This document shows positions 1 to 17,677 of a stretch of DNA of 64,000 bases, piece by piece. The notes below the pieces were generated by a model, which worked only from the letters and a program-made list of their open reading frames with translations, searched no databases and was not told the DNA's origin. The stretch lies in the NCBI GenBank assembly GCA_046314385.1, contig JBKBWZ010000004.1, positions 997-64,996 of the forward strand, read 5' to 3'. The translations under genes were made by a program, and so were the position numbers. Source of the DNA: Alphaproteobacteria bacterium (lineage in GTDB: Bacteria; Pseudomonadota; Alphaproteobacteria; Micavibrionales; UBA2020). Position 1 is the first letter of the stretch. The number at the start of each line of letters is the position of its first letter.

Positions 1-1
1 C

Positions 2-319
2 GGAGTAGGTGTGATTATTGACAGTGCTGCCACTGACTCACAAACCGATGGAGAGGACATAAGCGAAAGCGTCGCTCCCGCTTCAACGTCTCCTGTGAAT
101 AATGGAGGGGCGAAGCCGCCGTCTGCGCTGGGTCAAACAAAGCCGTCCGTCAATATAGACGGCGAAAGCGACACTATACCGGTGCGCTTAAAAGGAGGAC
201 GAAAAGCGTACTTGGTAGTGCCATATCCATTTTATGAAGCTGACCGCGATCAGATCATTCGAGCCCTGAATACCGTCGTAACTGATGACGAAAGCGAAGA
301 GATGGATGAAAAAGAATAA
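2..319 (+). CDS. 3' end of a CDS entering from the left window edge; hypothetical protein with an acidic C-terminus
   Basis: The frame is open from base 2 to TAA at 317-319. I recognise no motif. A hairpin plus T-run follows. Confidence 0.4.
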   Translation, partial: GVGVIIDSAATDSQTDGEDISESVAPASTSPVNNGGAKPPSALGQTKPSVNIDGESDTIPVRLKGGRKAYLVVPYPFYEADRDQIIRALNTVVTDDESEEMDEKE

Positions 320-346
320 GGCCTCCACCAGGGAGACCTTAAACAT

Positions 347-371
347 AGGGCGGAAACCCACCCTGCTTTTT
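347..371 (+). terminator. Possible intrinsic terminator
   Basis: GGGCGG-AAAC-CCACCC stem with one mismatch, followed by TGCTTTTT. Confidence 0.4.
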
Positions 372-465
372 GACGATTTCAGGATAGTGGGCCCTCAATC
401 TAAAGTCAAGTACCCGACGTTTCCTTGGGAGCTTGAGCAACTATGTGCTTAGGAGGCACAACCAC

Positions 466-954
466 ATGACTGAAGTAACTTCTAAAATCAGGCTGAAAAC
501 GGGGAACTTTGAAATCGAGTATGAAGGAAACATCACCGATTTTAAGACGCACCTGACGGAGATCTTGGAGACGGTTTCGGGCTACTTGCCCGCGGCGGCG
601 GCCTCGACACAACAAGCTCCTATCGGCACTGCAAACAATGTTGTTCCCTTTGCGAGCGGCCAGCTCGAAGCCACCACTAACACAATCGCGTCGAAGCTGG
701 GGTGCAACAATGGGGTTGACCTCATCAAGGCAGCCGCGCTGCAATTGACCCTCGTTCAGGGTAAGTCAAAGTTCACCCGCCAGGAACTTATTGATGAGAT
801 GAAGACGAGCTCTTATCACAAAAGCTCATATATCAGCAATCTGACTTCATATCTGAAGACGCTGCTGAGCAATGGGCTCTTGAACGAGAGCCAAAAAGAT
901 ACCTACTCTGTGAATCCCTCGCAGCTTCAGCAACTGCAGTTACAGGTGGCTTAA
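466..954 (+). CDS. Hypothetical protein, possible C-terminal winged-helix-like region
   Basis: ATG at 466 lies 8 nt after AGGAGG. The track start at 433 lacks an RBS. No catalytic motif was recognised. Confidence 0.55.
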   Translation: MTEVTSKIRLKTGNFEIEYEGNITDFKTHLTEILETVSGYLPAAAASTQQAPIGTANNVVPFASGQLEATTNTIASKLGCNNGVDLIKAAALQLTLVQGKSKFTRQELIDEMKTSSYHKSSYISNLTSYLKTLLSNGLLNESQKDTYSVNPSQLQQLQLQVA

Positions 955-961
955 AGAGAAT

Positions 962-983
962 GGCCACCCCTATGGGGGTGGCC
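962..983. terminator. 9-bp GC-rich hairpin between convergent genes; terminator-like but without a clean U-tract
   Basis: GGCCACCCC-TATG-GGGGTGGCC sits directly after the stop at 954. Confidence 0.35.
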
Positions 984-1143
984 ACCCTCTGGCTTAAAGA
1001 TTATAGACATGAAAAAAGATGATCTAATAAAGATAACTGAGCAATATCATTATCAACTCGTCGCATGTAAGAACACCTCGCGATCTCCATACACGCTCCA
1101 TTCGTAGAGAAAGTCGAGTGCTTTTGTCCAGATCTACGCATTA

Positions 1144-1968
1144 TCAGCCTGGGCAATCAGCTTTTTCGATTATATCTTTTTCCACCTTTTCAACCCCTTT
1201 AGGAGAAAGATACACAATCTCGTCACTCTCATTATATTCAATCAATTTTTCTCTATGTAGCGGCCTCAGTACATCACGTCGAAAGTTCGATATATGAGAA
1301 TGTTCAATCCAATCAAATAACTCCTCTGCTAATGCAGAACTCTCCGGCGATGAATATAATAGTAAGAGGACTTTCTTCTTCATACTCATATCCGGTTCAA
1401 GCACGCGATGTCTGCCATCTATCGCCCAAATAAATGGAAGAGTTTTGGCAGCAAGGGAATCTAAAAGGCTTTGCGCGTCTTCAATGGGCAAATTGTGATA
1501 GGTCCGTAAAAGTTCACACATGACCCAATCGCTAACCCTCACAATTGTAGCCATATCTATTGAATTCGCTTCAACATCACCCCCAACATGGCCAATCCCC
1601 CGCTTTCCTCTCATCGTGTATAAAAAAACGAGAGCTCTAGGAATGATGATTCGAAGGCTTTCAGGAACGCTTGGGGCATTTGCTTGGATAATAACCCTGC
1701 ATGCATCTGGGAAATTCGGAATATGCGTTCCAAAAGGTACATTATTTCCGGAGGTCACATGCTGTAAAAGACGAATTACGCTTTCACAAAACTTACCAAC
1801 GCTAATCCCAACAGAGTCCATCTCATTTGAATAAGATGCTTCAATCTGTCGTTTCTTAATTTCTTGGTAAGCGTTTATAATTTGACTGCGATACTTTGCA
1901 GGCACATTCGCTAAAGCTTGTTCAAGTAGACTATTTTGCGTCGACATACTCATACTGGCCTTTGTCAT
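1144..1968 (-). CDS. Hypothetical protein with a possible HEPN-like R-x6-H motif; downstream partner of a two-gene module
   Basis: 274-aa ORF. The motif TMRGKRGIGHVGGD fits the Rx4-6H spacing of HEPN/Abi-type domains at weak, motif-only level. It overlaps the upstream gene by up to 38 nt. Alternative Met starts are at 1953 and 1947. Confidence 0.55.
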   Translation of the reverse strand: MTKASMSMSTQNSLLEQALANVPAKYRSQIINAYQEIKKRQIEASYSNEMDSVGISVGKFCESVIRLLQHVTSGNNVPFGTHIPNFPDACRVIIQANAPSVPESLRIIIPRALVFLYTMRGKRGIGHVGGDVEANSIDMATIVRVSDWVMCELLRTYHNLPIEDAQSLLDSLAAKTLPFIWAIDGRHRVLEPDMSMKKKVLLLLYSSPESSALAEELFDWIEHSHISNFRRDVLRPLHREKLIEYNESDEIVYLSPKGVEKVEKDIIEKADCPG

Positions 1969-2773
1969 TCTGTTCCCGCTTTAATAATCTATTATGAACC
2001 GCCCGTCGAAGGGGGGTTGATAGCTCTTGCAAAATATATTTATGCGCAAGTTTTTTTTCACAGTGGTTTTGGATATCCGAAATTGAGCGTGGCTGAGAAA
2101 AAAAACCCTCCTCAGAAAGCATAGATAGCATCGCGCCCGGTCCCGGCCGCCCACTCTTCTTTTTTTGAGAGCCTTTTTTCTCGTGCGCAACAGGTGAAGA
2201 CGTAGAAGTCTTTGGAGAGGCTGGCTTATTTTTTCCAACGGGCTTTTTAAAAATTTTAGAGGGTTTATTTCTCACAGATGAGAAATTTCCTGCATCCAAA
2301 TAATCTTCCCCAGGCTGCATTAAGCGATATATAATTCCTTTTGATGTAGAACTTCTATCTACTTTATCACCCGCATCATCTAGTGCTTGCGTTACAGCTT
2401 GGCGCGTGGTCCTCACTCTAAATTTATCTGTTAACACCATCGCAATTTGACTTGCTCCAAGTCCATCCACATCGTAGTCGCTAGCAGCACGCAACAAGAA
2501 AAGAGATCGTTCCAACACCCTTGGGGCACTCATGACCTGTGGATAAGCTGTTCGATTAAGTTGTTTTAATAAAATTGCCACAGCATCTTGATTGACCTTA
2601 TCTTCTCTTGACAGAGCGTCTGATCGCCTTGCTGCTTTGCGTTCATCAGTATTTGAAGATGACCCTTTTAAAAGTGAGTCGAGCGCGCGATTAAAGGCTG
2701 CTTCGCGTAAATCCTTTGGAACCAATTCCGCAATTTCTGCCGCTTGCTTAATAGCATCTTTAATGTCAGTCAT
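1931..2773 (-). CDS. Hypothetical protein with a Lys/Ser-rich central linker and wHTH-like segments
   Basis: 280-aa ORF. The low-complexity linker KPSKIFKKPVGKNKPASPKTSTSS..KKGSQKKKSGRPGPG separates two globular parts. The gene is overlapped by the next gene. Confidence 0.55.
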   Translation of the reverse strand: MTDIKDAIKQAAEIAELVPKDLREAAFNRALDSLLKGSSSNTDERKAARRSDALSREDKVNQDAVAILLKQLNRTAYPQVMSAPRVLERSLFLLRAASDYDVDGLGASQIAMVLTDKFRVRTTRQAVTQALDDAGDKVDRSSTSKGIIYRLMQPGEDYLDAGNFSSVRNKPSKIFKKPVGKNKPASPKTSTSSPVAHEKKGSQKKKSGRPGPGAMLSMLSEEGFFSQPRSISDIQNHCEKKLAHKYILQELSTPLRRAVHNRLLKREQNDKGQYEYVDAK

Positions 2774-3071
2774 AAGCTCTCCCAGTTTTCAAATGGCAAA
2801 ATTAAATAGCATTTATGTAGGCCACGAATATAACATAAATGCCATAATATTCAAGCCGTCCATTATTTTCCACAATTTAACGTTATCAGACAGCTTCTAA
2901 TTTCCAGGCTCTACAGAACGCAGGGCATGCAAAAAACTCTTAAGCTAACTCTCAGTATTGAAACCTATCCTGCAGATCTTTTCGATTTACGCTCGACTAA
3001 GACGATTTTTTAATATCCCGCTGAACCAGCATTACATCCGCTGCCTTATTGGTTCCTGAAAAAATAAGTTA

Positions 3072-6000
3072 TTATTTATCACGAAGAAAACGGCTGGCAT
3101 ACAAAGTACACAATTCTCCGCTGTGTTTTAAAAGATATACGCGTGTGTAGTTTCGATCAAAATATTCGATGTTGTCTTTTTTTCCATCTTCACGGCGAAT
3201 CTCCACTTGAATAATAAGGTCCTGTTTGAGTCTTTGTAGGTTGTCCAACAGGCGACTGGTGTTTGCTATTAACCGCTCCCCATAATTTGCCGCTTGTTCG
3301 TGCCTATGTTCCCGGCGATCTCCCCACACTTGGGAGAACAAAACAGGAGACCCGCCCTGTCTCCAGATACGCTGATCTAGATCCAGTTTTAGCCTGAGTA
3401 AACGGCGTGTTCTTTTAGAGGGCTGTAATCCCGGCCAGGAAACCTTACCTGACAAGAGATCAAGCTTATCAAGCCCAGCCTCATTCTGCCGATCGCTAGC
3501 CCACCCATACATTTTATGCTCATTGGACCTAAATTCTTCATCATCATCAGGAACAAAGTAATCGTAGTGATTTATTGAGGTCTGCAATCTCTTTAATAAA
3601 TCAACAGACCCAGAAGGCGAAATGGCCGCAGAACTGATAGATATATTCTCGACTAAGCTTCCTTCTGACACATTCCATGAACCCCGAAGAACCATATCAT
3701 TCTCTAGGCTGCCTCCAATGAATAGTGCGTCATCAAAATCAGCCGGGATAATTTGCCACTTCCATTCCTGGTATGCTTCATTATTCATTGTTTCTTTTTG
3801 CCAGCGCCTATTCTCCAGAGGAATAGCATCCCTCCTATCTGCAAGCCAAAATCCATCTTCTCTGGTTAATAAATGCCCCCTGAGCCACTTAGCCCAGCTT
3901 TGCTGCCAAGTCTCTAGTACCGCTGTAGGCTTGGTAGCAAGAAGGCCAGCAGCTACTGAGAATATAGCGTGATAGCTGAGATAGAATGAAAGAGTGTCTA
4001 CCCCGGGATAGGCTCCACCATTGCACATGGTGTTTTCACCTTCATAATTCCCACGCAATTTACGTGGATCTTCATTCCATTTCCCCGTAGTTTTATTCTT
4101 TCCCTCTTTTATAGCCCAGTCTGATATAGGCTGCGCTATTTCTTCATATGAGAGATTGAATGCAGTAGACAAGGGCCCAATCCAATATCGATCAAAGTCG
4201 TGGGGAAAATAAAATTCAGTAGCTCGCCACGCATTCATATTCCACCCCGTTGGCTTTTTTCGTGGTTCCGGCGTGAACTGGCTAACATTAACCTCTTTTA
4301 AAAGGCTGATATCACCAGCAGAGATTATATCTGGGTATGCTTGGCCGATCGCTAAGGCTGCTTGTGCTGCAAATTCTTGGATTAGGGCATGATGAGGGGG
4401 TTTTAAAGACCATTGCAGAAACATATTGGTATGGGCCACCAAGGAATCAGGAACTTCTTTGGCGGCCCTTGCTAATGCAACCATTAAATACAGGCGGGAA
4501 TGCCAGCAGTAGAAGGGAAGTGTTTTGTCTGTAAACGCAGGCAGGACTTCTATGTCCATTAAGTTGATAAGCTCCGCAACAACACCTGAAGCCTTTAAGC
4601 GGCATAAATGAACCACACAATGTGCAGCTTGCCACCTTAGCTTTGCTCTAGGGTTAGCCAGCAGAACGTAAATAAAGGCAGCAACAGCGCTATCCATGTC
4701 TTTTGGTGGAACAAGGTCTTTATGCCATGGCCCATCAGCGTCTGTATCTCTGACCTCTATATCTACCCTTCCGAGGGCATATTCGAGGGCGTCGACTGCA
4801 TCTTGAGGCGTTAGTATTCGTGAAATTTTATGGGCAGCAACAAATAAATTTGAAGCATTCAGTTTTTCTACGTTATTTGCTAACCCCTTAAGCAATGAGG
4901 CCATTAACGCCTCATTACCAATTGAACCCAGAGTGCCCATCTTTTCCAGGTCTTTTTCCAAGCTGTATATACTTCTACAAAAAGCCTGAATCCTGCTTTC
5001 TATTAACTCAAGGCAAACAGCCCGTAGTCCATTCTGTACAGATACCCTGTTACGCCATGAAACCTTTGCGTCTTCTAGCGCACTAATAGTGTTCCAAAGC
5101 TCCAGCTCCGAAGAACTGGCAAGAGCCCTTAGGTGGAAGACCTCCTGATCTCGCGGAACCTGTGCAAGCATCCGGTTAAACAGCTCCTGAATAGGCCCGT
5201 ATGGCTTGGATTTCTTAACCTCACGAACTGCAGCATCAATCTCTGCTGTATTAGTAAAGGTCTTACTGCCAATAATCCCTCCCCAGTCAACAACCGGAGG
5301 TTCTTTATCCGCAGACAGATAATCATCGTTGCTGTGGCGCTCTCTAGAACCCTTTTCTTTATGGAGGCCTATAATCTCCTGAAGAGTTTTATGTGAGAGG
5401 ACATATTTATCCGCTATGACTTGTAGCTCTGAGGCCTCCTCCCATTTTCCATGAATACTTATATCCCTAACCAGATGCTGAAACATATATTCTTTCTGTT
5501 TTGCCTTGTGTAACAAGGCATCAGAAAACTCCCCTATGCCCCATCTTCCCTTAAAGGACAATAAAGAGAATGCAGCCTCTGGCGAAATCAAATCATTTTT
5601 TAACAAGAACGAGGTAAGAGATGGCAGCATTTCTCTTATCCAGCCTTTGTCCCGATCAAGCCAACGGCTTAATACCGCAAAACCTGATACAGGACAAATC
5701 TTTGCAATATTGCAGATCACCGTGTCCCAAGGAAAGTGATCAGGAACATGCTCACTCACTACCTCGGCTGCCCTAGCATATTTATACGCAAGTTCAGGAT
5801 TCGACCCCGATACCTCCCCTGCAATTACAGCCAGGTTTGTAATACTCTCCCATCGGTTTATAAGCTCATCTCCAAAGCGATTAACTATCTCCAAGGCATC
5901 ACCGAAATATGCAGCAGCCTCATTTCTGCTCAAGGCCAGCATGGCCCTTGCCAAATCTGTATAGCATTCAGCTCTTTGTGTCGCATCCCCCCTATATTCA

Positions 6001-9000
6001 TCGCTGTCATCTTTTACGCACTTTGCAAAATCATAGGCCTTCTCATGTGCGGGGGTATAGCGTGCCATTGTTCTGGTCATGGCTGTTTTTCGTGGAATAA
6101 AAATAAAAACCTTTGTTTCCCTGAGCCATACCTCCAGCTGATTTATAGTGCCTGTATTCGCCGTTTGGGAGCGAACCAGGATATCCAGCCACAAAGGAGC
6201 GATTTCATTCACTACGCGTGTTTCCGGGTGACCATATCCACGATAATTTTTTGTAAGGGCGAGTATCCTGTCGACTTCATCCTGTACGGGCACATTGTCT
6301 TGCGTGATTATTCTTGCTCTTAGTATGTACCAATGAAGCAGTGTTCCGATGACCTCTTTAAACTCCCTGAAATCTGAATTATGCCCCCTCTGATTTTCAG
6401 GGATTTCCTTTATTTTGTCCGGGGCAATATCAAGTAGCTGTATCTCCTTCCCTTCAAGGGCCGCCTTAAGGCAGTTAAATCTGAGGATGGCATCCCGATC
6501 CCTACTGTGATCAGATGAATAACCGTACTGGGGAATTTCTGGCATATACCTGTCAAGGAGACTTAACAGGGGTTTCTTGAAGGTCTTTATTTGTGCTCCA
6601 GCCTCTATGAGCGCTATAATTCCGTCCAGAATATTATCTGGATGGAAAGAATCTTTTTCCCGCTCGATTTTCTTTGTCTTGAAGAGCAAGGATAGGGCTT
6701 CCTGTATGGCTGTCTCAGGCGGGATACGGGATATTTTTCCGACTTCATTGGCAAGCGCGAGGGAGAGATAAAGGCTTTTCTTAGACGCCAAAGCGGCAAT
6801 TTGGTCTACCAAATCAAAATGGCCGGCGTCTATCAGGCGAGATATTACAGGCGAGCCCACTTGAAAAGAGACCGGCTTGTAAGTCCAGCGCAGCAGATAC
6901 GCCATCATCTCTTTCGGGCCATGCAACATAAGATGGGCAAGTGCCATTGCAGACCTGTCGTGCGTGTCAATCGGCTGTGCTTTTTTCTCTTCCTGAGAAA
7001 GGTCAGCCCAGTGATTAAGCCATTCCTCGGCACAACGAAGCATGTTGCGGGCCTCTCCCTGACATGTCTCATCTCCCGCCAAAATGGGTGCTCCATAGGC
7101 AAATCCTGACCCCATCCATTCGCCAGCGTGATGCCTGAAAACTATTTCCTGAGCTCTCTTGGCACCAAAAAGGGTCGCAACCAAATCATGATTATCAAGA
7201 AGAATATCTATCTCACGGCTATTCCCTGCGGCCTCTTCCCCAGCTCTTATTGCAAGTTTTACCGCGTCTAGATATAGGTTTTCCTTTACTGCTGCTTTTA
7301 ATGCAAAGTGGACTCGTCGCATTACAATGCGCCGTTTTTCTATCGGATTATCTGTAGGCAATGCCTCATCTCCCGAGGCAAGTGACATCAGCTTTCCAAT
7401 CTGTCCTGCCTGCCAGAGTAGTTCGGGCAAGGCCATGGCTACATATGGATCTGATTTTTGTGGCTCTAGCGCATTAACCAGCTGGAGATATTGTGCTGGC
7501 TTTGCAAAATTGTCACGGAACCACGTGTCTACCGGCTCATCCCGGAAATGAAGGGCGCCATCCAGCTCCATTAAGTAGCGGCCTATGTCCGAGATAAAGC
7601 TGCGAACTAGCGCTTCTGATACATTAGCTGCTTGGGCCAGCGTTTTTATTGGAACCAAGGGAGGCAAGGCAGCGAGCGCAATGCATAAAGTATCTATTTG
7701 CGTTGGTAATGCAGAATCGCCTTTAACTTTCGCGATGGTTTTCTGTAGCTGGTGCGATATTGTGTCTTCCACGCCTAATGGTTTTGGCCCGAAGCTGGAC
7801 ATCATATCCTGCAAAGAGCCTTCTGAAGATAAAGCATTGGCCTGCACCCTCGGGTTGGCACTGGACATACGATGAAACTCCCTAACCGTCTGGTCTGAGG
7901 CTTCAGGATAATGACTTCTCAAAAGCTGCGCGGTTTCCGATAACTCGAAGGGGTGTAATGGTAGCTGTTCAATAAAAGGGGCAGGGTTCAAATGAGAGGT
8001 GACGCGCTCAGTTCTGGAGACAAATACCAAGCGACAATAGGCGGGCACCTGCACATTCAGCAGGTTCTGTGTGAAAGACTGTGAATTAGGGGCCTCTAAC
8101 TCAGCCCCCATTTGAGAGTTATCTGCTGCATCCAGCACTACCAGTACCAAGGCATCTGGCTTAAATTGCCTGATAGTAGCAGCAACTTGTGTCAGACGAT
8201 TCAAGAAAGCGGCAATATACTGTCCCCTATCCGCACTAGCAGAAGGAATCAGGGGATCACACAGCCCCCTGGACGAAAACTCGTTAACTATCTGGACCAA
8301 GCCACGATCATATTTATGCCTTGGATTGCTGGGATCCCTGTATAAACCGCCCGCAAAACCGTCGAAAACAACACTCTCAGATCCATCCGGCATAAGGGCG
8401 GGCAGGCGTAATGCCAAGGTAGATTTCCCCACCCCGCCAGAAGCGTGTATAATTAGTGCAGACTTAGCTTCAATTATTTTTTCCGCAATTTCCCCTTCTT
8501 GAGCACGTGGTATATATTTCTCAGGAAGCTTATATTCCTCTGAAGGCGGGGCAGGACGCAATTGACCTTCGGATACATTGAAAGCTGTAAGGACATCATG
8601 TCGACGCACAGGTTTTTTGTTATCTGTTAGAAGTCCCTTATCTCGAACAAGTTTTTCTAGGTTGAGAGGGGCAATAGTATCATATCCTGGTAGATATTTA
8701 CTGATCTCGCCTTTGAGGGTCCATTCTTGGTCTGGTCGACTGGCCTCGTTTGATTGAAACCTAAATAGACTAGAAAACAGCCTAAATCTGCTATCTGATA
8801 ATTTTGCAGCGGCCTTTAGACTATTTAGGGCGTTTTTCGCATGTCCTGTTTCCTGTCGCCCTTCACAAGCCGCTACCAAAGCTTTTTTGACGTTCTCAGA
8901 AATTGGCCGATTGGTTACAAAGAGATACTCCAGCTTCCCTTGAGTGACAGTTTCGCCATACTTGGTGCATTTTTCCTCAAAGTCTTGCGCAAAAGCCCCA

Positions 9001-9323
9001 AAGGTTTCTGCAATGCCGCTTGCGGGCCAAGGAGTGTGGTAATCGCTGGGAGAATACTTTAGCTGTGCGCGCACAATTTTACGCGCGCCCTCAAAGTCCT
9101 CTCCCCCATAGTATTCCGTGGTATCTGATTTAAGCGTTGCATCTTCCGCCGTGGCAGTATCATGCGGGCTAATCGATTCGACGCCCACAGCCTTCAGATC
9201 CGAAAGAGGGTTCAATAAGATTAAGCATCTTCTTGCCGCCCAAACTACGTGAAAAGCATGGCCTTCGTTGCTTGCTCGAACTTTATCTATGTCACCCTCG
9301 GGTAACGCCATTTTCAAACACAC
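3072..9323 (-). CDS. Giant 2083-aa protein: N-terminal PD-(D/E)xK (Cap4/DUF4297-like) nuclease-type head, P-loop STAND-type NTPase, and a ~1500-aa uncharacterised C-terminal region
   Basis: 6.25-kb uninterrupted ORF in AT-rich DNA. N-terminal pattern is GHAFHVVWAARR..VGVES..D..AQLKYS. Walker A is ASGGVGKST (nt ~8418-8444) and Walker B is LVLVVLDAADN (nt ~8127-8162). An alternative start is MALPEG at 9311. Confidence 0.85.
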   Translation of the reverse strand: MCLKMALPEGDIDKVRASNEGHAFHVVWAARRCLILLNPLSDLKAVGVESISPHDTATAEDATLKSDTTEYYGGEDFEGARKIVRAQLKYSPSDYHTPWPASGIAETFGAFAQDFEEKCTKYGETVTQGKLEYLFVTNRPISENVKKALVAACEGRQETGHAKNALNSLKAAAKLSDSRFRLFSSLFRFQSNEASRPDQEWTLKGEISKYLPGYDTIAPLNLEKLVRDKGLLTDNKKPVRRHDVLTAFNVSEGQLRPAPPSEEYKLPEKYIPRAQEGEIAEKIIEAKSALIIHASGGVGKSTLALRLPALMPDGSESVVFDGFAGGLYRDPSNPRHKYDRGLVQIVNEFSSRGLCDPLIPSASADRGQYIAAFLNRLTQVAATIRQFKPDALVLVVLDAADNSQMGAELEAPNSQSFTQNLLNVQVPAYCRLVFVSRTERVTSHLNPAPFIEQLPLHPFELSETAQLLRSHYPEASDQTVREFHRMSSANPRVQANALSSEGSLQDMMSSFGPKPLGVEDTISHQLQKTIAKVKGDSALPTQIDTLCIALAALPPLVPIKTLAQAANVSEALVRSFISDIGRYLMELDGALHFRDEPVDTWFRDNFAKPAQYLQLVNALEPQKSDPYVAMALPELLWQAGQIGKLMSLASGDEALPTDNPIEKRRIVMRRVHFALKAAVKENLYLDAVKLAIRAGEEAAGNSREIDILLDNHDLVATLFGAKRAQEIVFRHHAGEWMGSGFAYGAPILAGDETCQGEARNMLRCAEEWLNHWADLSQEEKKAQPIDTHDRSAMALAHLMLHGPKEMMAYLLRWTYKPVSFQVGSPVISRLIDAGHFDLVDQIAALASKKSLYLSLALANEVGKISRIPPETAIQEALSLLFKTKKIEREKDSFHPDNILDGIIALIEAGAQIKTFKKPLLSLLDRYMPEIPQYGYSSDHSRDRDAILRFNCLKAALEGKEIQLLDIAPDKIKEIPENQRGHNSDFREFKEVIGTLLHWYILRARIITQDNVPVQDEVDRILALTKNYRGYGHPETRVVNEIAPLWLDILVRSQTANTGTINQLEVWLRETKVFIFIPRKTAMTRTMARYTPAHEKAYDFAKCVKDDSDEYRGDATQRAECYTDLARAMLALSRNEAAAYFGDALEIVNRFGDELINRWESITNLAVIAGEVSGSNPELAYKYARAAEVVSEHVPDHFPWDTVICNIAKICPVSGFAVLSRWLDRDKGWIREMLPSLTSFLLKNDLISPEAAFSLLSFKGRWGIGEFSDALLHKAKQKEYMFQHLVRDISIHGKWEEASELQVIADKYVLSHKTLQEIIGLHKEKGSRERHSNDDYLSADKEPPVVDWGGIIGSKTFTNTAEIDAAVREVKKSKPYGPIQELFNRMLAQVPRDQEVFHLRALASSSELELWNTISALEDAKVSWRNRVSVQNGLRAVCLELIESRIQAFCRSIYSLEKDLEKMGTLGSIGNEALMASLLKGLANNVEKLNASNLFVAAHKISRILTPQDAVDALEYALGRVDIEVRDTDADGPWHKDLVPPKDMDSAVAAFIYVLLANPRAKLRWQAAHCVVHLCRLKASGVVAELINLMDIEVLPAFTDKTLPFYCWHSRLYLMVALARAAKEVPDSLVAHTNMFLQWSLKPPHHALIQEFAAQAALAIGQAYPDIISAGDISLLKEVNVSQFTPEPRKKPTGWNMNAWRATEFYFPHDFDRYWIGPLSTAFNLSYEEIAQPISDWAIKEGKNKTTGKWNEDPRKLRGNYEGENTMCNGGAYPGVDTLSFYLSYHAIFSVAAGLLATKPTAVLETWQQSWAKWLRGHLLTREDGFWLADRRDAIPLENRRWQKETMNNEAYQEWKWQIIPADFDDALFIGGSLENDMVLRGSWNVSEGSLVENISISSAAISPSGSVDLLKRLQTSINHYDYFVPDDDEEFRSNEHKMYGWASDRQNEAGLDKLDLLSGKVSWPGLQPSKRTRRLLRLKLDLDQRIWRQGGSPVLFSQVWGDRREHRHEQAANYGERLIANTSRLLDNLQRLKQDLIIQVEIRREDGKKDNIEYFDRNYTRVYLLKHSGELCTLYASRFLRDK

Positions 9324-9563
9324 TTTTTTGTAAAAAATCCTGGAGAGGATAACATTTTTCGTTTTACCAGTAACTTCACCATTGCAACTTTTAAGTACGC
9401 AATTGGGCTTACGGGCACCACTGCAAAATATCTAAATGACCGCGCCATATTATGAAATAAATGACCTCTATTTTGCACTGCCTGAGTGATAACATACGAT
9501 GTAGAAAGGATCAGATAGAACGCCTTCGGTGTTATGGCTACAGGGCTTCGGAAACATCTGATG

Positions 9564-11714
9564 CTAGCAATCTCTGCCTGAAGTTTCCTGCCTTCTCCAT
9601 GCATCTAGAAATGTCTTAATGACCTCAGGGCAAGCATCTCCGTCTCTGGTTTCGATTTCTTCCAGCCTCTGACGAAACCGCGTACGATCAATAATATCAT
9701 CTAAGCCTGAAACAGCAGCGCGAACAGTACGGCGTGTTACAGTATCGCTCATGGTGTGGGTCCATGAGTGAGAGGTGAAAATCTTCGCAAAGTGGGCAAC
9801 CATCTCATCATTATCCAGTTTTGAAGATGTCCAGACCCTTGCCTCTGCACCCCCATCATTGGCGAACTCGCGCCAACGGAACAAAATGCTATGAAGGCCT
9901 CGGCACTGAAGGAGGCTATCATCAGCGGCGGATGTCCTGATTTTCTCTAGAGCCATAGGCACCAATTCATCCAAGTCCGCACGGGTAACAAGGCAGTTTT
10001 CTTCTGTTTCAGGCTCCCTTCCTTCCCTGGGGTGGTACCCCGAGTACGCGGAGGAAGTGAAATCAACGATCCACCCCAAGGACGCCTGTCGACAGGCCGC
10101 CATGAATATAGCTGATCTCTGAGGCAAGGAAGTCCTGTCCAAGGTCAGCTTCCTGAGTAACCAGTGAATTCTTAGCTCGTTACTCCCGACTGAAAATGCC
10201 CCGGCTAGATCGGCATCTGTATGTAGTTCATCCGCCAAGGCAAATACAGTCTCCAGAAGGGGCCGTGCTTTTTCTAAAGGGATATCCTGAGCATGCAAAG
10301 TCATGCCCTCCAGAAGAAGAGCTGATTTTGTGCCACCGGATTTCCTCTTTACTTGAAGCGCGGCCTGCAGCTTTGATCGAATGAATGGCCTATCTTCTGC
10401 TCTTCGTATGAGTTCATCTATCTCCTGCTGCGGCACGGCATCTGGACTAATTGAAAAGCGGAAGTATGAATCAAAATGTGATTTTGAGCATACTCTGCGC
10501 TGACGTTCCCATTCATCAGTAGACGAATAGTGGACATTGCTCCAGATGCTTTCTAAGTGGGGGAATAACCGGTAGAGGCCTCTCTTGTAGCGGGCGCGCG
10601 CCGCTTCCGGAATGGAAGTCAAGAAGACCTCATCGTATTTAGCCGCCTGATCCCTGCTTGACGCGTAATAATTAACCCCCTTTTCACAGAGAAGAAGCTT
10701 ATTCTGGCGTAATGCGCGGTAAAGCTGGGGCTGGAACAAGCGTAATGCCTCCAAGGCCACGAAATCACCGATATCCACTTGCCCTGCTATAGATGGCCAA
10801 GTCACGGTAAGGGTGTAGCCTAGCCTTGTGGCATCCCTTGGCGCCTTGATCTCATGCGCAACGATATCATTAAACAAATTCATAAATCTGACTATATTGC
10901 TATCCCCGGGATGGCCACATACTGCCTCAATATGAGACAGCAGCTGCCGATGCAAATCCTCCTGCTGTGGCTCGGGTATTTCAAACGACGCCTGGACTAT
11001 CTTCTCCAGATAATGCGGGCCCTCGGAAGGAAAACGCTCGGAAACAATCTTTTCCGCGAGCGGGCGGTCATACACGAGCAGATACATGACATTCGGAAGC
11101 CTGCCCACGGACTTGACAAGGCGGAAGATCAGCAAGGCTTCTTCCGGGGACAGGCGATCTATATCGTCAATAATGACAAGGAACCTTTTCTTCTGTTCGG
11201 CCAGCATCCTCGAAAGTTCAGCATGCAGTCCCTCGACGCTTTCATCCTGACTAATCAAGCTACCTAGCCATCCCATGGACCCCGAAGCGATTTTTCCCAA
11301 ACCACCAGCCCCCATGGTTTCAGCGGCAGCCTCTATTATTGAGCCTGTACGGAGGAGCTGTGCACCGAGCTTGGGCATGAGCTTCTTAAATCTTTTAGAG
11401 AGGCTCGGGCCGATCCCGGCATATAAGTCGCGAAAAAATGCTAATGCCAGTGCTTCTTCCCCCCTGAACCACCAACAGTTAAAACGAATGATCTTCAGAT
11501 CCCCTTTGTCAACCGCTTCCTGCAGGTGATGCAAGACAAGGTTAACAACACTGCTTTTTCCTGAACCCCACGGGCCATTCAGTGCAATAACAGACCCTAC
11601 TGGAGAAGACATTTTTAGCACGCTCCGGGCCAGCGCCTGGGCAAACGGGTCTATACCAAAAAGATCTTCCTTGGGCTCCTGGATAGGCTGATCGTTATAA
11701 TGTGCGGCGCTCAT
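9564..11714 (-). CDS. KAP-family P-loop NTPase
   Basis: N-terminus DLFGIDPFAQALARSV..VIALNGPWGSGKSS (Walker A, nt ~11550-11576). A long insert precedes the Walker B FLVIIDDIDRLSPEEALLIFRLVKSV. This is the typical KAP layout. Confidence 0.9.
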   Translation of the reverse strand: MSAAHYNDQPIQEPKEDLFGIDPFAQALARSVLKMSSPVGSVIALNGPWGSGKSSVVNLVLHHLQEAVDKGDLKIIRFNCWWFRGEEALALAFFRDLYAGIGPSLSKRFKKLMPKLGAQLLRTGSIIEAAAETMGAGGLGKIASGSMGWLGSLISQDESVEGLHAELSRMLAEQKKRFLVIIDDIDRLSPEEALLIFRLVKSVGRLPNVMYLLVYDRPLAEKIVSERFPSEGPHYLEKIVQASFEIPEPQQEDLHRQLLSHIEAVCGHPGDSNIVRFMNLFNDIVAHEIKAPRDATRLGYTLTVTWPSIAGQVDIGDFVALEALRLFQPQLYRALRQNKLLLCEKGVNYYASSRDQAAKYDEVFLTSIPEAARARYKRGLYRLFPHLESIWSNVHYSSTDEWERQRRVCSKSHFDSYFRFSISPDAVPQQEIDELIRRAEDRPFIRSKLQAALQVKRKSGGTKSALLLEGMTLHAQDIPLEKARPLLETVFALADELHTDADLAGAFSVGSNELRIHWLLRKLTLDRTSLPQRSAIFMAACRQASLGWIVDFTSSAYSGYHPREGREPETEENCLVTRADLDELVPMALEKIRTSAADDSLLQCRGLHSILFRWREFANDGGAEARVWTSSKLDNDEMVAHFAKIFTSHSWTHTMSDTVTRRTVRAAVSGLDDIIDRTRFRQRLEEIETRDGDACPEVIKTFLDAWRRQETSGRDC

Positions 11715-11739
11715 GAGAAAACCTCTATGTTATGGCTGT

Positions 11740-12648
11740 TTATGCTGCTGCTCCTTCCAGCTCTTTTAGTTCTTCCTTAGCTGCATCAATCAGGTCAATA
11801 AGGGGCATCTCTATTGCCGCAAGGTTGGCTTGTGGATAGTAACTCTCAAAATCGCCGCCTTCCGCGTGTATGGCGACAATTTTAGACAGGCATTCCATCT
11901 CGATTTCAAAAATTACATTGCTCAGCCTTTGTGCATTTGCCCAATAAGACTTGGATATGCCATCAACCGTGTAGACCGTGGAATGATGAAGGAAGGCAAG
12001 AGTGTCTTCCTCATCCATGCCCCTTTCCTTGACGAATTCTTCTATAACCTCACGATAAGCGGCAGAAGAAGTTTCTTCCCAATCCTCGTCATGGGATGCC
12101 CAGGCATCAAGTCCCCTATAAAACTCAAGCGGCTGTCCATTGTAGTCAACTTTAGCCTCATCGTTCCACGCGTTGCACATATCACTTGCATCATCCAGCA
12201 AATATATATGACGCAGTTTATTCGGATTAAATGCCAGCATTCTATTATTTAATGTTGATATGCAGAGCCATTCTTCGTCTTTCGCTATTTTTGCAAGAGC
12301 GCTTGATACTTCATTGGCCGTTTGTAATGTAATCGGGAACCATTTGACTTTCTCCTGCCCTGGAAGAAGAAGTCCGATGTGTCCCCAGAATCCATCCGTA
12401 ATATTTTCCCGGCCGGCAAGTGAGAAGCATAGATGGTTAGTCGCTACTTTGTCAGAGAATGGGTTGACATCGAGCAGATCGTCCACACTTGTCGAAAAGA
12501 TCATCGCAAGATCCCGCAGATCGCTCATGCTGGGCTCTGCCTTGCCGCTTTCCCAGCGCGCAATTGTCTGCTGCGTCGTTTTAAGCTTTTCAGCCAATTG
12601 CTGCTGCGTGTAGTTACCGGACTGCCGAAGGGCTTTCAGACGTTTCAT
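11740..12648 (-). CDS. XRE-family HTH domain fused to a ~230-aa uncharacterised C-terminal domain
   Basis: LRQSGNYTQQQLAEKLKTTQQTIARWESGKAEPSMSDLRDLAMIFSTSVDDLL is a classic Cro/C1 HTH. The gene ends 25 nt upstream of the KAP gene start, which suggests an operon. Confidence 0.85.
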   Translation of the reverse strand: MKRLKALRQSGNYTQQQLAEKLKTTQQTIARWESGKAEPSMSDLRDLAMIFSTSVDDLLDVNPFSDKVATNHLCFSLAGRENITDGFWGHIGLLLPGQEKVKWFPITLQTANEVSSALAKIAKDEEWLCISTLNNRMLAFNPNKLRHIYLLDDASDMCNAWNDEAKVDYNGQPLEFYRGLDAWASHDEDWEETSSAAYREVIEEFVKERGMDEEDTLAFLHHSTVYTVDGISKSYWANAQRLSNVIFEIEMECLSKIVAIHAEGGDFESYYPQANLAAIEMPLIDLIDAAKEELKELEGAAA

Positions 12649-12697
12649 TTTGATCTCCTTATGGAGACATAATTATCACCCGAAATTCGTGTTGACA

Positions 12698-12712
12698 ACA
12701 CATATAATGTGT
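12698..12712. promoter_or_regulatory. Perfect palindrome ACACAT-ATA-ATGTGT in the divergent promoter region; candidate operator for the adjacent XRE protein
   Basis: It lies 50 nt upstream of the XRE gene start, in the AT-rich 175-bp spacer between divergent genes. Confidence 0.35.
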
Positions 12713-12823
12713 ATTTTTAATCTGGCTGGGCCTAAAAATGCAACTATAGACACTATACGCTCTAAAATGCTCTTTTTTTGTACTTATATATCAAGAGAGA
12801 ATCTGTTCAACTTAAACCACTAG

Positions 12824-13111
12824 ATGTACACGATAACTTCAGTAAGGAGAAAAGGCGCAGTGGCACGGGAAATATTCGGCCTGATTCCCATGGAAAAGAT
12901 AAGGGCTAATGTCCTCGTAAACTGCCTGAACTCACAAACCGGCCGCATGGAAGATCAGGTCATTGTTTCCGCACTTATTGTCAGATCCACTATGAGCGGC
13001 CTGAACTTCAGGGGTATTGACCCGTCAGATTATCTCAGGAATTTTATACACAATATGAAGTTCACGAAAACACGTGGCTTTGAAGCTGTGGAAAAAATGG
13101 AGGCCTTATAA
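12824..13111 (+). CDS. Hypothetical small protein (95 aa)
   Basis: The ORF is divergent from the XRE gene. Its stop TAA at 13109-13111 abuts the next ATG at 13113. No motif was recognised. Confidence 0.4.
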   Translation: MYTITSVRRKGAVAREIFGLIPMEKIRANVLVNCLNSQTGRMEDQVIVSALIVRSTMSGLNFRGIDPSDYLRNFIHNMKFTKTRGFEAVEKMEAL

Positions 13112-13112
13112 A

Positions 13113-13649
13113 ATGCCCTTATCTCAGCTCACTTGGCCAGAATGGGCCGGCATTATAGGAGCGGTTTCCGGTGTACCTGCACTATTTATCCAGCTCATCC
13201 AATACCTGCACTCCAAGCCGCGTCTGCGGGTAGATGTCTCACCCGAGTGCATCATCATCAGAGACGAGTTTAAGGTTAAGAATGACTGTAATCCGGATGA
13301 AGAAGGGTACAGGTATGCGACCCATGTCGTCATTACAAATGTTGGACAAATGACGGCATCTATACTTAAAATCGAGATACGCGCTAAAAACTATGGATGG
13401 ATAGACACCCTGCTCAGCAAGTTGCCTGTACTCAAGAAAACAAGAAGGGGAATTATATCACATGACAAGGCGATTATTGACCAAACATACAAAACACCCT
13501 TTACGCTAGATGCAGGCCATGTCTGGATTGGAATTGTAGATGCTCTGCCATACCGTGAAAACCTGCATCATTTTCCACATGTATATCTTGAAATAAAGAC
13601 ATCACATAAAAAGAAGCCGCAAGTCAAAAAAATCAAACTGGCGGCCTAA
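13113..13649 (+). CDS. Hypothetical membrane-anchored protein (178 aa)
   Basis: ATG at 13113 lies 9 nt after GGAGG. There is an N-terminal hydrophobic helix, WAGIIGAVSGVPALFIQLIQYL. Confidence 0.5.
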   Translation: MPLSQLTWPEWAGIIGAVSGVPALFIQLIQYLHSKPRLRVDVSPECIIIRDEFKVKNDCNPDEEGYRYATHVVITNVGQMTASILKIEIRAKNYGWIDTLLSKLPVLKKTRRGIISHDKAIIDQTYKTPFTLDAGHVWIGIVDALPYRENLHHFPHVYLEIKTSHKKKPQVKKIKLAA

Positions 13650-13749
13650 GGTTGCTTGCGTATGTAACAGGTATAACCAAGCACTCCGCTACGGATTGGA
13701 AACGAAAGCTTAAAATTGGGAAACGAGCTAAAGCGGTAACTTAATCTTT

Positions 13750-14232
13750 ATGAGCATAGATTTCAATTTCAGTAAATGGGTCATCTGGCAAGCACGTAAT
13801 GAGCTATCCAGCCTTAACGCACCTGGCGTGTATGCCTTGGCAAAATCGAAAGTGGATCTTAACGGAACGCCTTTTGATTGGTCGCACGACATTATCTATT
13901 TTGGCGTATCCGGCGCACTTAAAAAACGGCTTCGACAATTCGACGATACCGTCGCCCAACGCAGAAAACAGCATGGTGGAGCAGATCGCGTATTATTTAA
14001 ATATCCAGAATATAATTCGCTCATATCGCAACTTTACGTGAGCGTCATCGCCATTGGCAATACCGCAGCAAGCACTACGCCTGATTGTCTAAGGAGGATC
14101 GGAGAGGCCCACCGTTTGGAATATTACTGCATGGCCAAGTACCTTGAACTGCATTCGCAGTTACCGGAATTCAACCGCAAGGACGCACCCAAGTTTAGCA
14201 GACAACAGGCTAAAACTCCCTCATCCGTATAA
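13750..14232 (+). CDS. Small GIY-YIG-like nuclease-domain protein
   Basis: GVYAL..(~30 aa)..IIYFGVSGALKKRLRQF matches the GIY / YIG / conserved Arg spacing. Confidence 0.5.
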   Translation: MSIDFNFSKWVIWQARNELSSLNAPGVYALAKSKVDLNGTPFDWSHDIIYFGVSGALKKRLRQFDDTVAQRRKQHGGADRVLFKYPEYNSLISQLYVSVIAIGNTAASTTPDCLRRIGEAHRLEYYCMAKYLELHSQLPEFNRKDAPKFSRQQAKTPSSV

Positions 14233-14411: not shown

Positions 14412-14912
14412 TCAGTAAATATCCTCCCCTGCTTCCCAGCGGCGCATCGCTTCGGCCTGATCTCGCAGCATGATCTGGCGCTGCTCTTCGGCCTCTATTC
14501 TGAACTTTTCCAGAGTCTGCGTGCCAGAAACGACTAGCACGCCACCCCCTTTTCTCGCCTTCTCTTTGGCCAGCGCCTCCTCCAGCTCCGCAATCTTGTT
14601 TGCATGCGGTCCCGTGACGTTCTGAGTGTAAATTTCGGGGAAAAAGCGCGCGTCCATCTCGATCAGTTTTATCAGGACACGCGGGTCTTTCTCTACCAGC
14701 GCCTGATGTCTCAGTGTCATCCAGAGCGCCTGGCGCGTAGAGAGATTCTTGTTGCCGGACAGCTTGTCGCGCATAAAAATACCGAATTCGGTTTTTGTAT
14801 TTTTGCTCCCCTTCGGACGGCCGCCACGGTTTATCGGGTTTCCGTCAGGCGCTCCGAACTGGCGACGCTTGGGCAAATTTCCATCGTTTTTGTCCTTTCC
14901 TTTATCGCTCAT
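14412..14912 (-). CDS. Phage-type DUF5681-like protein (GRPKGSKN motif)
   Basis: The motif GNPINRGGRPKGSKN is present. The start MSDKGKDK overlaps the methylase stop in an ATGA arrangement at 14909-14912. The track start at 14981 is probably too long. Confidence 0.65.
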   Translation of the reverse strand: MSDKGKDKNDGNLPKRRQFGAPDGNPINRGGRPKGSKNTKTEFGIFMRDKLSGNKNLSTRQALWMTLRHQALVEKDPRVLIKLIEMDARFFPEIYTQNVTGPHANKIAELEEALAKEKARKGGGVLVVSGTQTLEKFRIEAEEQRQIMLRDQAEAMRRWEAGEDIY

Positions 14913-16174
14913 GCTTTTGCTCCCGCAGCCAATGCACGGCCGCCTGTAAACTTCTCCCAGCGGCGGATGATGACGTCGCAATAGAGCGGGTCGAGCTCGA
15001 TCAGGCGGGCTTTGCGGCCGGTTTTTTCGGCGGCGATCAGGGTGGTGCCGGAGCCGCCGAAGGGGTCAAGCACGATATCGCCGCGGGCGGAGGCGTCCTT
15101 GAGCGCATCGGCAACGAGGGCGAGGGGTTTGACCGTCGGATGCATGGCAAGCTCCTGCATACGCCCGCCCGCGAAGGAGTTGACGCCGGGGTATTCCCAG
15201 ACGTTGGTGCGGTAGCGGCCGTGTTTGCCGAGCTGGATGTTGTTGATATGCGGCGCCGTGCCCTTTTTGAACACAAAGACCAGCTCGTGGCGGCTGCGGT
15301 AAAAGCTGCCCATCCCGCCGTTATCTTTCACCCAGACGCAGAGATTCTGAAGGCCGAGGCCTGCCATGTCGCCCGCTGCGGAAAGCTCGTCAATATGGCG
15401 CCAGTCCATGCAGCTATAGATAATCGCGCCGTCTTCGGCATAATCGGCCATCAGCTTGTGCGATTGATAGAGGAACTGGGTAAAGGCCTGCGTATCCATC
15501 TCTCCCGAGGCCATGGCGAATTCGCGGTGCTGGATCTTGCCCGAATTCCCGACATGGCCTGCGATTTTGACGTTATAGGGGGCATCTGTAAAACAGAGGC
15601 GGGCTTTGGCCGTTCCCATCAGGGCGGCATAGCTCTCCGGCTGCGTCGCATCGCCGCAGTAAAGCAGGTGCTCGCCGAGCTGCCAGAGGTCGCCCGGACG
15701 CACGACGGCCGGTCCTGTCGCCGGCGCCGGAATATCTTCATCTGCGCCAGGCACGAGCGGCTCCAGTATGATATCCAGCTCCGGCACCTCGAAGCCCGAC
15801 AGCGTCAGGTCGATATCCGGCAGCTTGATCATGATTTCCTGAAACTCCGCCGCAAGCAGGGCGTGGTCCCAGCTAGCTTCTTCGGCGATACGGTCGTGGG
15901 CGATACGCAGCAGACGCAGCTGCTCTTCGGCCAGATGGCCGGCGCGAATGACCGGGATTTCTTCCATCTGCAAACGGGGCGCGGCCGCCACCAGATGGGC
16001 GCCGATCACTGTATTGCAATCTGCGTCGATCACCACGGGGGGCATAAAGCCACATTCGCGGATCATACGCTCGGTTTTGAGGATTTGTTTCTTGCCCGGA
16101 ATACGGAACTGGCGGGCGTAATCTTTGACCAGCTCGAGGCGCAGGTATTCCACCTGCAGATGATTATGAATCAT
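14909..16174 (-). CDS. ParB-like N-terminal domain fused to an N6/N4 DNA methyltransferase (phage-type orphan MTase)
   Basis: CFTDAPYNV is a DPPY-type catalytic motif. VLDPFGGSGTTLIAAEKTGRKARLIELDPLYCDV is the SAM-binding motif. The N-terminus LRLELVKDYARQ..PPVVID..VIGAHLVAAA is ParB-like. The start is placed at MIHNH (16174). Confidence 0.9.
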   Translation of the reverse strand: MIHNHLQVEYLRLELVKDYARQFRIPGKKQILKTERMIRECGFMPPVVIDADCNTVIGAHLVAAAPRLQMEEIPVIRAGHLAEEQLRLLRIAHDRIAEEASWDHALLAAEFQEIMIKLPDIDLTLSGFEVPELDIILEPLVPGADEDIPAPATGPAVVRPGDLWQLGEHLLYCGDATQPESYAALMGTAKARLCFTDAPYNVKIAGHVGNSGKIQHREFAMASGEMDTQAFTQFLYQSHKLMADYAEDGAIIYSCMDWRHIDELSAAGDMAGLGLQNLCVWVKDNGGMGSFYRSRHELVFVFKKGTAPHINNIQLGKHGRYRTNVWEYPGVNSFAGGRMQELAMHPTVKPLALVADALKDASARGDIVLDPFGGSGTTLIAAEKTGRKARLIELDPLYCDVIIRRWEKFTGGRALAAGAKA

Positions 16175-16439
16175 AGCGGTTTCCACATAGATGGCGTTAA
16201 ACGTGCGGAAACCGGGCAATAAAAAAAGGCATGGTTTCCGGAAAAAAACTTCAACCAGAACCATGTCTGTGTTGAAACCCATCCGGACCATGCCGCGATA
16301 CAGGAGCTTGAGGCTGGTTCAGGAGCTTATAGACCGGGCCACGCCATGTTGACCTCTCTCCAGAACACGGCGACCATGCGCCACCCTCAAACCGGGATGA
16401 CTCAATGATGTCAAATTTCGCTCCCGAAATCAAGAATTT

Positions 16440-17249: not shown

Positions 17250-17254
17250 GATAA

Positions 17255-17677
17255 TTATCTCCTGCATACATCAAGAATGGCGCCGTTCAGGTAATAGGCC
17301 TCCTGCATGTCGGCCGGTTTGCCGACCACCGTCTGGGCAATCGCCCCATCGCGGAACAGCGTCACAAAAGGCACGGCGCCATTATAGCCGCCCATCCTGT
17401 TTTTGCTGTTCACGGTTCCGCAGACCTTCCAGCCGAACATCTGCTGCGTGCCGTACATCGAAGACTCCTTGAAATAGCCCTTGGCGGGTTTTTCGAAGGT
17501 ATAAAGCGGGGATGTGGGGTCGATTAGCAAGGTTGCGAATTCCTGCCGGATCATCGACTGGTGATGCGCCGGTGGCGGCGGCCCGTAATCGGCATTGGCG
17601 ATTTCTTCGGGTGATATGGGCGTTGCGCAGCCAGTCAGGAACAACAGCCCCGCAAGTATGATTTTATATCTGAACAT
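17255..17677 (-). CDS. Lipoprotein of unknown function
   Basis: Signal peptide plus lipobox: MFRYKIILAGLLFLTGC. Confidence 0.7.
   Translation of the reverse strand: MFRYKIILAGLLFLTGCATPISPEEIANADYGPPPPAHHQSMIRQEFATLLIDPTSPLYTFEKPAKGYFKESSMYGTQQMFGWKVCGTVNSKNRMGGYNGAVPFVTLFRDGAIAQTVVGKPADMQEAYYLNGAILDVCRR

Follow-up and report, generated by a model that had tools for sequence, protein, structure and literature searches.

A divergent, probably Avs3-type antiviral sensor-nuclease gene without an adjacent avs3b in a defence island of an uncultured alphaproteobacterium

Results

A large uninterrupted gene

The window analysed here is a stretch of 64,000 nucleotides (64 kb) from a metagenome-assembled genome (MAG) of an uncultured alphaproteobacterium, and it carries near its left end, on the reverse strand, one very large gene. 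We consider it likely that this gene encodes a divergent Avs3 (AVAST type 3, Avs3a), an antiviral STAND NTPase that, by analogy with SeAvs3 of Salmonella enterica, would sense the large terminase subunit of a phage, oligomerise and cut DNA non-specifically in a form of abortive infection. Positions 3072..9323 of the reverse strand make up a single open reading frame (ORF) of 2083 codons, counted from a GTG, with zero internal stops; with the 46.6% GC found here, 2079 codons would lack a stop by chance with a probability of ~1e-52, and in the other frames across it the longest ORF is at most 195 amino acids (aa). The gene and the parts of its predicted product are the following.

3072..9311, reverse strand: Avs3a-like gene, 2079 aa from the ATG at 9311; stop codon at 3072-3074
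8622..9311, reverse strand: Cap4-type PD-(D/E)xK nuclease domain, residues 1 to ~230 (AlphaFold2 model and Foldseek)
9057..9179, reverse strand: nuclease catalytic core E45, D63, E66, Q83 and K85 (118/118 homologues)
7212..8504, reverse strand: putative STAND-type NTPase module, residues ~270-700 (boundaries approximate, placed by collinearity with SeAvs3)
8418..8444, reverse strand: Walker A, ASGGVGKST, residues 290-298 (family alignment)
8118..8150, reverse strand: Walker B, LVLVVLDAADN, residues 388-398 (family alignment)
4905..7211, reverse strand: helical (TPR-like) sensor arm, residues ~701-1469 (boundaries approximate; the least conserved part)
3075..4904, reverse strand: C-terminal sensor, residues 1470-2079, 610 aa (phmmer, AlphaFold2 and Foldseek)
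4185..4187, reverse strand: Y1709, equivalent of SeAvs3 Y1714 (phmmer and MAFFT alignments)
4017..4019, reverse strand: G1765, at the position of SeAvs3 H1770 (phmmer and MAFFT alignments agree)

Residues are numbered from the ATG at 9311, and 4 is added for numbering from the in-frame GTG at 9323, which lies upstream and would supply four extra residues. The ATG is probably the true start, because the GenBank record and the Logan gene call both begin there, giving 2079 aa, and because the alignments of homologues start only near residue 8. The product is identical to GenBank MFN7114648.1, labelled 'hypothetical protein ACK4PK_09870'; exact look-up matched the ATG version and returned no match for the GTG version, and no convincing Shine-Dalgarno sequence stands ahead of either codon. 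An initial annotation of this DNA, made from the letters alone, had quoted the ORF together with a set of motifs, and all of these are present in an uninterrupted frame, including GHAFHVVWAARR at residues 17-28, VGVES at residues 41-45 and AQLKYS at residues 82-87.

Assignment to Avs3a

Profiles of the Avs3a family match the protein from end to end. The PADLOC model (PDLC02167) is covered at positions 5-2090 of 2090 with 1647 bits, the NCBIfam model NF041816 ('AVAST type 3 anti-phage nuclease/ATPase Avs3a') at 1-2083 of 2083 with 1725 bits, and residues 6 to 2084 of SeAvs3 itself (PDB 8DGC_A, 2092 aa) align with query residues 14 to 2077 at 1099 bits. Avs3a was the sole Avs family matched, as Avs1, Avs2, Avs4 and Avs5 gave no PADLOC match up to E 0.1. 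The initial annotation had found no recognisable motif in the ~1500 C-terminal residues, and this holds for Pfam alone, the impression arising because Pfam gives one weak AAA_25 match and nothing else (its Cap4/DUF4297 model stays above E 0.1 on the query); the Avs3a profiles and SeAvs3 match the whole length. The size that had been singled out is likewise unexceptional for the family, in which Avs3a proteins run to ~2080-2130 aa and SeAvs3 to 2092 aa. Judged by sequence, the protein can be placed over its full extent in a known family, one for which a structure has been solved, though the query had not previously been annotated as Avs3.

The query is a distant member of that family. At least 641 homologues were found among 5.8 billion proteins, nearly all of 2080-2130 aa and several of them named Avs3a by NCBI. 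The top match, P0001, comes from a Nitrospinota MAG at 51-52% identity, and no known sequence is closer than 52%; in a collection of species-representative genomes the sole match was a 51% identical Nitrospinota MAG. A small group of relatives (P0001-P0007) shares 42-52% identity with the query, while the bulk of the family shares 33-35% with it and ~51% among its own members. No near-identical DNA was found in complete E. coli genomes or PLSDB plasmids, and one core gene of the window, searched for at distant sensitivity, likewise had no E. coli match.

The nuclease head

Conservation was read from 118 full-length homologues aligned with one another. Residues 1-235 were modelled with AlphaFold2 (55 sequences; pLDDT 92.3, pTM 0.89) and the model was compared with the PDB by Foldseek; the Cap4 domain of SeAvs3 ranked first (8DGC_A, TMq 0.90, rmsd 2.1 Å, 33% identity), followed by Enterobacter cloacae Cap4 (7YIA/7YIB, TMq 0.61-0.62), LmuA and HamA and, further down, by other Cap4 structures, a DUF4297 structure and MspJI. 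The initial annotation had proposed a Cap4/DUF4297-type PD-(D/E)xK nuclease here and had named a different N-terminal fold as the outcome that would speak against it; model and structure search agree on a Cap4-type fold, and the E..D..QxK arrangement (E45, D63, E66, Q83, K85) is invariant in all 118 homologues and kept in full in the query. In the first helix G17, F20 and H21 are retained, and the only departures within the conserved DGDQFHY motif are D18 to H and Q19 to A, at two positions that also vary in other divergent members. The model has a low-confidence loop at about residues 46-62, positioned where the flexible loop 41-60 of SeAvs3 sits, which is said to regulate the Cap4 domain of that protein (PMC13581612).

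The fold is shared more widely than the architecture. Cap4 structures (7YIB, 6VM5, 6WAM) resemble the query head in fold (TMq 0.46-0.62, Foldseek probability 1.00) and in the E..D..QxK arrangement, but Cap4 is a CBASS effector made of DUF4297 and SAVED parts and is only 10-13% identical to the query head. No SAVED match to the query that might indicate a SAVED/CARF sensor was found in Pfam, NCBIfam or PADLOC, and the nuclease adjoins the Avs3 NTPase instead; Cap4 fires on a cyclic oligonucleotide, whereas the query would be expected to fire through NTPase-driven oligomerisation after sensing a protein. LmuA of Lamassu and HamA of Hachiman also have the Cap4-like nuclease fold by Foldseek, and these nucleases are activated through oligomerisation in a defence complex. 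Unlike the query, each is a small protein of its own that works alongside SMC-like or helicase partners, without a STAND NTPase and without a terminase sensor.

The NTPase module

A P-loop NTPase of STAND type with Walker A and B motifs had been proposed, and the motifs are well kept. In Walker A, G295 and K296 are invariant and position 297 is S or T in 118/118 homologues (S297 in the query); in Walker B, DAADN (residues 394-398) is at least 95% conserved, with D397 in 118/118. We place the module in the STAND class on the strength of its collinearity with SeAvs3 and of the precomputed Pfam NACHT, NPHP3_N or AAA_16 matches carried by more than half of the homologues.

The helical arm and the C-terminal sensor

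Between the NTPase and the C-terminal region lies the part of the protein that has diverged most, with a median identity of 24% to the family over residues 1001-1500; searched alone, this segment is still collinear with SeAvs3 885-1454 (205.6 bits, E 1.1e-59). The C-terminal segment, also searched alone with phmmer, matches SeAvs3 1484-2084 at E 6.5e-90. Modelled with AlphaFold2 (pLDDT 84.3), residues 1470-2079 form helical repeats that lead into a beta-rich end domain. The one PDB match of this model by Foldseek is 8DGC (E 5.5e-38, TMq 0.76, 31% identity), the next hit standing at E 0.085. The segment-wise structure prediction that had been suggested as a check was made for the two ends, and head and C-terminus both lead to SeAvs3.

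Among 1.84 billion cluster representatives the C-terminal segment gave 1343 phmmer matches at E ≤1e-3, 590 of them at ≤1e-30. In the best 150 the match sits at about residues 1455-2120 of proteins of ~2025-2145 aa, or else in shorter, fragment-like entries, so that among the full-length entries of these 150 the distribution is confined to proteins of Avs3a length. We therefore regard the C-terminal sensor as a hallmark of the Avs3a family alone, because its matches sit at the C-terminal end of Avs3a-length proteins. The initial annotation had called this region a phage-protein sensor of unknown specificity: the sensor part of that description stands, by collinearity with SeAvs3 and by fold, and the part on specificity gives way, since SeAvs3 senses the large terminase.

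Residues that contact terminase-bound ATP

According to a preprint, Y1714 and the H1770 loop of SeAvs3 contact the ATP bound by the terminase, and H1770 is there called indispensable for immunity with reference to the original study (bioRxiv 10.64898/2026.08.25.746987). The query keeps the tyrosine as Y1709, in a column that is Y in 109 of the 118 homologues. The H1770 column is His in 98/118 and another residue in 20/118, and His is therefore not a universal requirement of the family; the column is non-His in the nearest relatives of the query, P0001-P0006, with P0007 as the exception, and ~12% of the Avs3a proteins that are typical in other respects have Q, K or Y there. The query sensor is without this ATP-contacting His, and its recognition details, or the range of terminases it would see, probably differ from those of SeAvs3.

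A stronger version of the same thought is that the divergent clade has kept the Avs3 chassis and been retargeted, so that it recognises some other phage protein, or recognises terminase independently of ATP. The shared absence of the His in the query and P0001-P0006 and the arm, only ~24% identical to the main family, would fit this, as would the report that Avs2 homologues respond to additional, unrelated phage proteins (PMC11564622, PMC13601566). We nevertheless think it improbable: the C-terminal sensor is plainly homologous (E 6.5e-90) and has a SeAvs3-like fold, the Y1714 partner is in place, the frequency of Q, K or Y in the His column among typical members shows that the His is no strict requirement, and the far more divergent Avs1 and Avs2 still sense terminase (PMC13601566, PMC11564622).

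Absence of Avs3b

AVAST type 3 is modelled in PADLOC and NCBIfam as a two-gene system, Avs3a plus Avs3b. The absence of the second gene, a feature that the initial annotation did not contain, was assessed against a survey of 80 metagenomic loci and one viral locus, retrieved through the C-terminal alignment, and against six further Avs3a loci. In every surveyed locus with at least 700 nt of downstream sequence (75/75) an Avs3b match follows Avs3a directly on the same strand. Five of the six further loci (P0001, P0004, P0008, P0010 and P0053) also have Avs3b, with proteins of 185-255 aa lying -74 to +34 bp from the Avs3a stop and matching at E 1e-25 to 6e-81; P0002 is without it. Avs3b (NCBIfam NF041817, PADLOC PDLC02168) often overlaps the Avs3a stop codon. 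In the query the corresponding place is taken by a spacer.

2774..3071, no strand assigned: AT-rich spacer of 298 bp at the place of avs3b in relatives; none of its frames has coding potential for Avs3b

The PADLOC and NCBIfam Avs3b profiles matched none of the six neighbouring genes. A hidden Markov model (HMM) built from the five Avs3b proteins was run over all frames of the 64-kb window, the 6.9 kb to its left (contig L001) and L093, a contig introduced below, and found no match; its best E values there were 0.9-3.5 (3.5 in the window), as compared to 3e-88 in the positive control L005. The P0002 locus, whose Avs3a is 50% identical to the query, likewise lacks Avs3b. In a distance tree the query, P0001 (with Avs3b) and P0002 (without) form an unresolved trio, compatible with an old as well as with a repeated loss of Avs3b.

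Two loci with Avs3b were of further interest for their surroundings. The viral locus L010 (IMGVR_UViG_3300031110_000340, 44.5 kb, from a viral collection) encodes a 32% identical Avs3a C-terminal region followed by Avs3b, which suggests that a prophage or phage-like element may at times carry the Avs3 system. In Methylocystis parvus (CP092968.1, L009) an Sf6_terminase (small-terminase) gene at 11222-11749 lies ~240 bp downstream of Avs3a-Avs3b on the opposite strand and is followed by AAA_30 and DUF927 primase-like genes, so that a terminase-sensing system seems here to lie within or next to an element derived from a phage.

Evidence for selection on a gene without its partner

A metagenome contig from JGI (L093) contains the last 326 codons of a second copy, at 97.1% nucleotide identity to the query gene. 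The two differ by 14 synonymous and 12 non-synonymous changes (dN/dS 0.23; binomial P 3e-4 against neutrality). Similarity between L093 and the window ends 14 nt past the stop codon, and the 150-nt tail of L093 holds no Avs3b start. The low dN/dS, the intact ORF and the conserved residues together speak for a gene that is under selection without an adjacent Avs3b. They also rule out a pseudogene.

It could be supposed that, having lost Avs3b and the equivalent of His1770, which is now Gly, the query confers no immunity and is a stranded relic, an intact ORF heading to decay. The presence of Avs3b directly downstream at 80 of the 82 other loci examined (75/75 and 5/6 among them) argues that it matters, and it was found in neither the window, L001 nor L093; the query protein is also rare, as its exact sequence occurs on one Logan contig and on the MAG contig in GenBank, and a third data set adds a fragment that is 97% identical. 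We judge this explanation unlikely in view of the 2079 stop-free codons (P ~1e-52), the retention of every invariant catalytic and nucleotide-binding residue, a dN/dS of 0.23 between two copies that both lack Avs3b right after the stop, and the lack of Avs3b at P0002 as well. The solved complex of SeAvs3 with terminase (8DGC, titled 'Avs3 bound to phage PhiV-1 terminase') also contains no Avs3b, and nuclease activation has been attributed to terminase-induced tetramerisation of SeAvs3 itself (PMC13601566). The later literature searched here does not refer to Avs3A or Avs3B by name, and no published role for Avs3b was found in it (the original SeAvs3 paper and the 2020 AVAST paper were outside this search). 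On balance, the query appears to work without Avs3b.

Genomic context

The features to either side of the gene are listed from left to right.

20097-21913 of L001, past the left end of the window: DUF2924 protein and serine recombinase, with core genes beyond
1144-1968, reverse strand: 274-aa gene of an overlapping pair; no match in Pfam, NCBIfam, PADLOC or PHROGs
1931-2773, reverse strand: 280-aa gene of the same pair; no match in Pfam, NCBIfam, PADLOC or PHROGs
9564-11714, reverse strand: PifA-like KAP-family P-loop NTPase, 716 aa (full-length PADLOC PifA match, 410.6 bits; Pfam KAP_NTPase)
11740-12648, reverse strand: 302-aa protein with an XRE-type helix-turn-helix (HTH) and an unassigned C-terminal part; precedes the KAP NTPase
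14909-16291, reverse strand: N6/N4 DNA methyltransferase; no restriction partner seen nearby
16440-17267, reverse strand: UzuA homologue (Uzume system), the third defence gene of the island, 275 aa (full-length PADLOC match, 309 bits; weak GIY-YIG match)
17864-19153, forward strand: tyrosine integrase at the right end of the island
Starting at 19993: CusCBA/Czc-type efflux operon, right of the island

The GC content is 43-50% at positions 1-14000 as compared to 53-58% over most of the remainder of the window, where the flanking core genes lie, and at six other Avs3a genes the neighbours differ from one locus to the next and from those listed here. The locus is an integrase-bounded mobile defence island of an alphaproteobacterial MAG and not a core context. 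The possibility, raised in the initial annotation, that homologues might be housekeeping proteins in conserved surroundings is answered by the integrase, the UzuA, PifA-like and methyltransferase genes, the low GC and the variable neighbours. A tRNA scan found no tRNA in the 64-kb window; the best candidate for an att repeat, a 13-bp direct repeat at window 19990-20002 and L001 ~22401-22413 (E 0.3), was not above chance; and a promoter and terminator scan of positions 1000-13000 gave no more sites than shuffled sequence, none of them informative.

Since the genes at 11740-12648, 9564-11714, 3072-9311, 1931-2773 and 1144-1968 lie close together on one strand, a larger multigene system might be imagined in which the Avs3-like protein acts with the PifA-like KAP NTPase and the HTH protein, or in which the 280/274-aa pair replaces Avs3b. 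We find this very unlikely. None of these neighbours stands beside the six other Avs3a homologues, and with gaps of ~250 and 298 bp on its two sides the Avs3 gene gives no sign of being translationally coupled to them. Over its full length the KAP protein matches PifA, a single-gene model, which led us to reject it as a partner of Avs3; it is probably a separate abortive-infection gene with its own HTH regulator. Homologues of the 280-aa protein number at least 132 and come from several phyla. In two unrelated genomes (L091 and L092) one of them again overlaps with a following gene for a ~270-aa homologue (62-63% identical); neither place has an Avs3 in its vicinity, and in one of the two a TIR-domain gene lies alongside. 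The pair was accordingly rejected as a substitute for Avs3b, as it recurs elsewhere without Avs3, and its distribution marks it as a predicted conserved, autonomous two-gene cassette inside the defence island.

Discussion

SeAvs3 is activated only by the large terminase subunit in screens of whole phage genomes; it binds both the ATPase and the nuclease domain of the terminase as well as the terminase-bound ATP, and on binding it tetramerises, whereupon its Cap4 domains degrade double-stranded DNA non-specifically (PMC13601566, PMC11564622, PMC13581612, bioRxiv 10.64898/2026.08.25.746987). A mechanism of this kind is the best supported for the query, because every module and every invariant catalytic residue has been retained. 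In an uninfected cell the protein would, from its homology with SeAvs3, be a latent monomer. During infection the helical arm and the C-terminal sensor would clamp the newly made large terminase subunit of the phage, and the ATP-bound NTPase modules would tetramerise after this capture. The tetramer would bring the Cap4 domains together for indiscriminate degradation of double-stranded DNA, and the infected cell would die or stall ahead of phage progeny. The overall idea of the initial annotation, a STAND protein of Avs type that has a Cap4 head and ends in a sensor of phage proteins, was right in kind, as profiles, models and residues all indicate.

Several observations weigh against the assignment to a working, terminase-sensing Avs3. 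The NCBIfam score of 1725 falls below the equivalog cut-off of 2800, and NCBI and GenBank therefore keep the label 'hypothetical'; the score is low because the query is an outlier to the main family by identity. Pfam itself sees no NACHT or STAND domain in the query. Trigger and activity are both taken over from a relative that is only about one-third identical (33% in the head, 31% at the C-terminus). The residue corresponding to SeAvs3 H1770 is Gly, and the loop, TMCNGGAYPG, is without any His. Lastly, Avs3b was not found in the query window, where the next gene is 298 bp away and unrelated, and if Avs3b is needed in vivo the query copy may be impaired. We still hold the Avs3 reading to be likely on the evidence given above.

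The comparison with SeAvs3 is the closest that can be made. The two fall in the same length class (2092 vs 2079 aa), are collinear, have the same catalytic and Walker residues, and follow one three-part plan of Cap4 nuclease, STAND NTPase and helical arm with C-terminal sensor. They differ in that the query is only about one-third identical, has Gly for His1770 and the D18 to H and Q19 to A changes, and is without Avs3b downstream; the host of SeAvs3 is an enterobacterium, whereas that of the query is an uncultured alphaproteobacterium. Avs1 and Avs2 are also STAND NTPases with TPR-like sensors for the large terminase, and Avs2 has been reported to have a C-terminal sensor element in common with SeAvs3, and Avs1 to be structurally similar to Avs3 (PMC13601566); unlike the query, both have other effectors and a shorter TPR arm (PMC13601566, bioRxiv 10.64898/2026.08.25.746987).

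This assignment gives a probable identity, that of an Avs3-type antiviral sensor-nuclease, to a 2079-aa 'hypothetical protein' from an uncultured alphaproteobacterium, and the leftmost 19 kb of the window can be interpreted as a defence island with Avs3a, PifA-like, UzuA and methyltransferase genes and a two-gene cassette. As the Avs3 family is by now well understood, the gene itself comes as no surprise. The lack of Avs3b and that of the ATP-contacting His are genuine but modest peculiarities, and they make the locus a convenient natural test case and not a new type of system. A divergent sensor without His1770 can usefully be set against SeAvs3 to learn how terminase recognition copes with change, and an orphan that exists in nature and is apparently selected offers a simple route to asking what Avs3b is for, the mechanistic descriptions consulted here and the solved complex being concerned with Avs3a alone. 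We tentatively raise the possibility, which we hold to be less likely than not, that the query, and perhaps P0002 too, represents a naturally Avs3b-independent Avs3 lineage whose sensor has dispensed with the ATP-contacting His. If this is true, such a lineage would recognise terminases or another phage protein by a mode unlike that of SeAvs3, and the near-universally linked Avs3b would be an accessory or a regulator and not part of the core sense-and-kill machine.

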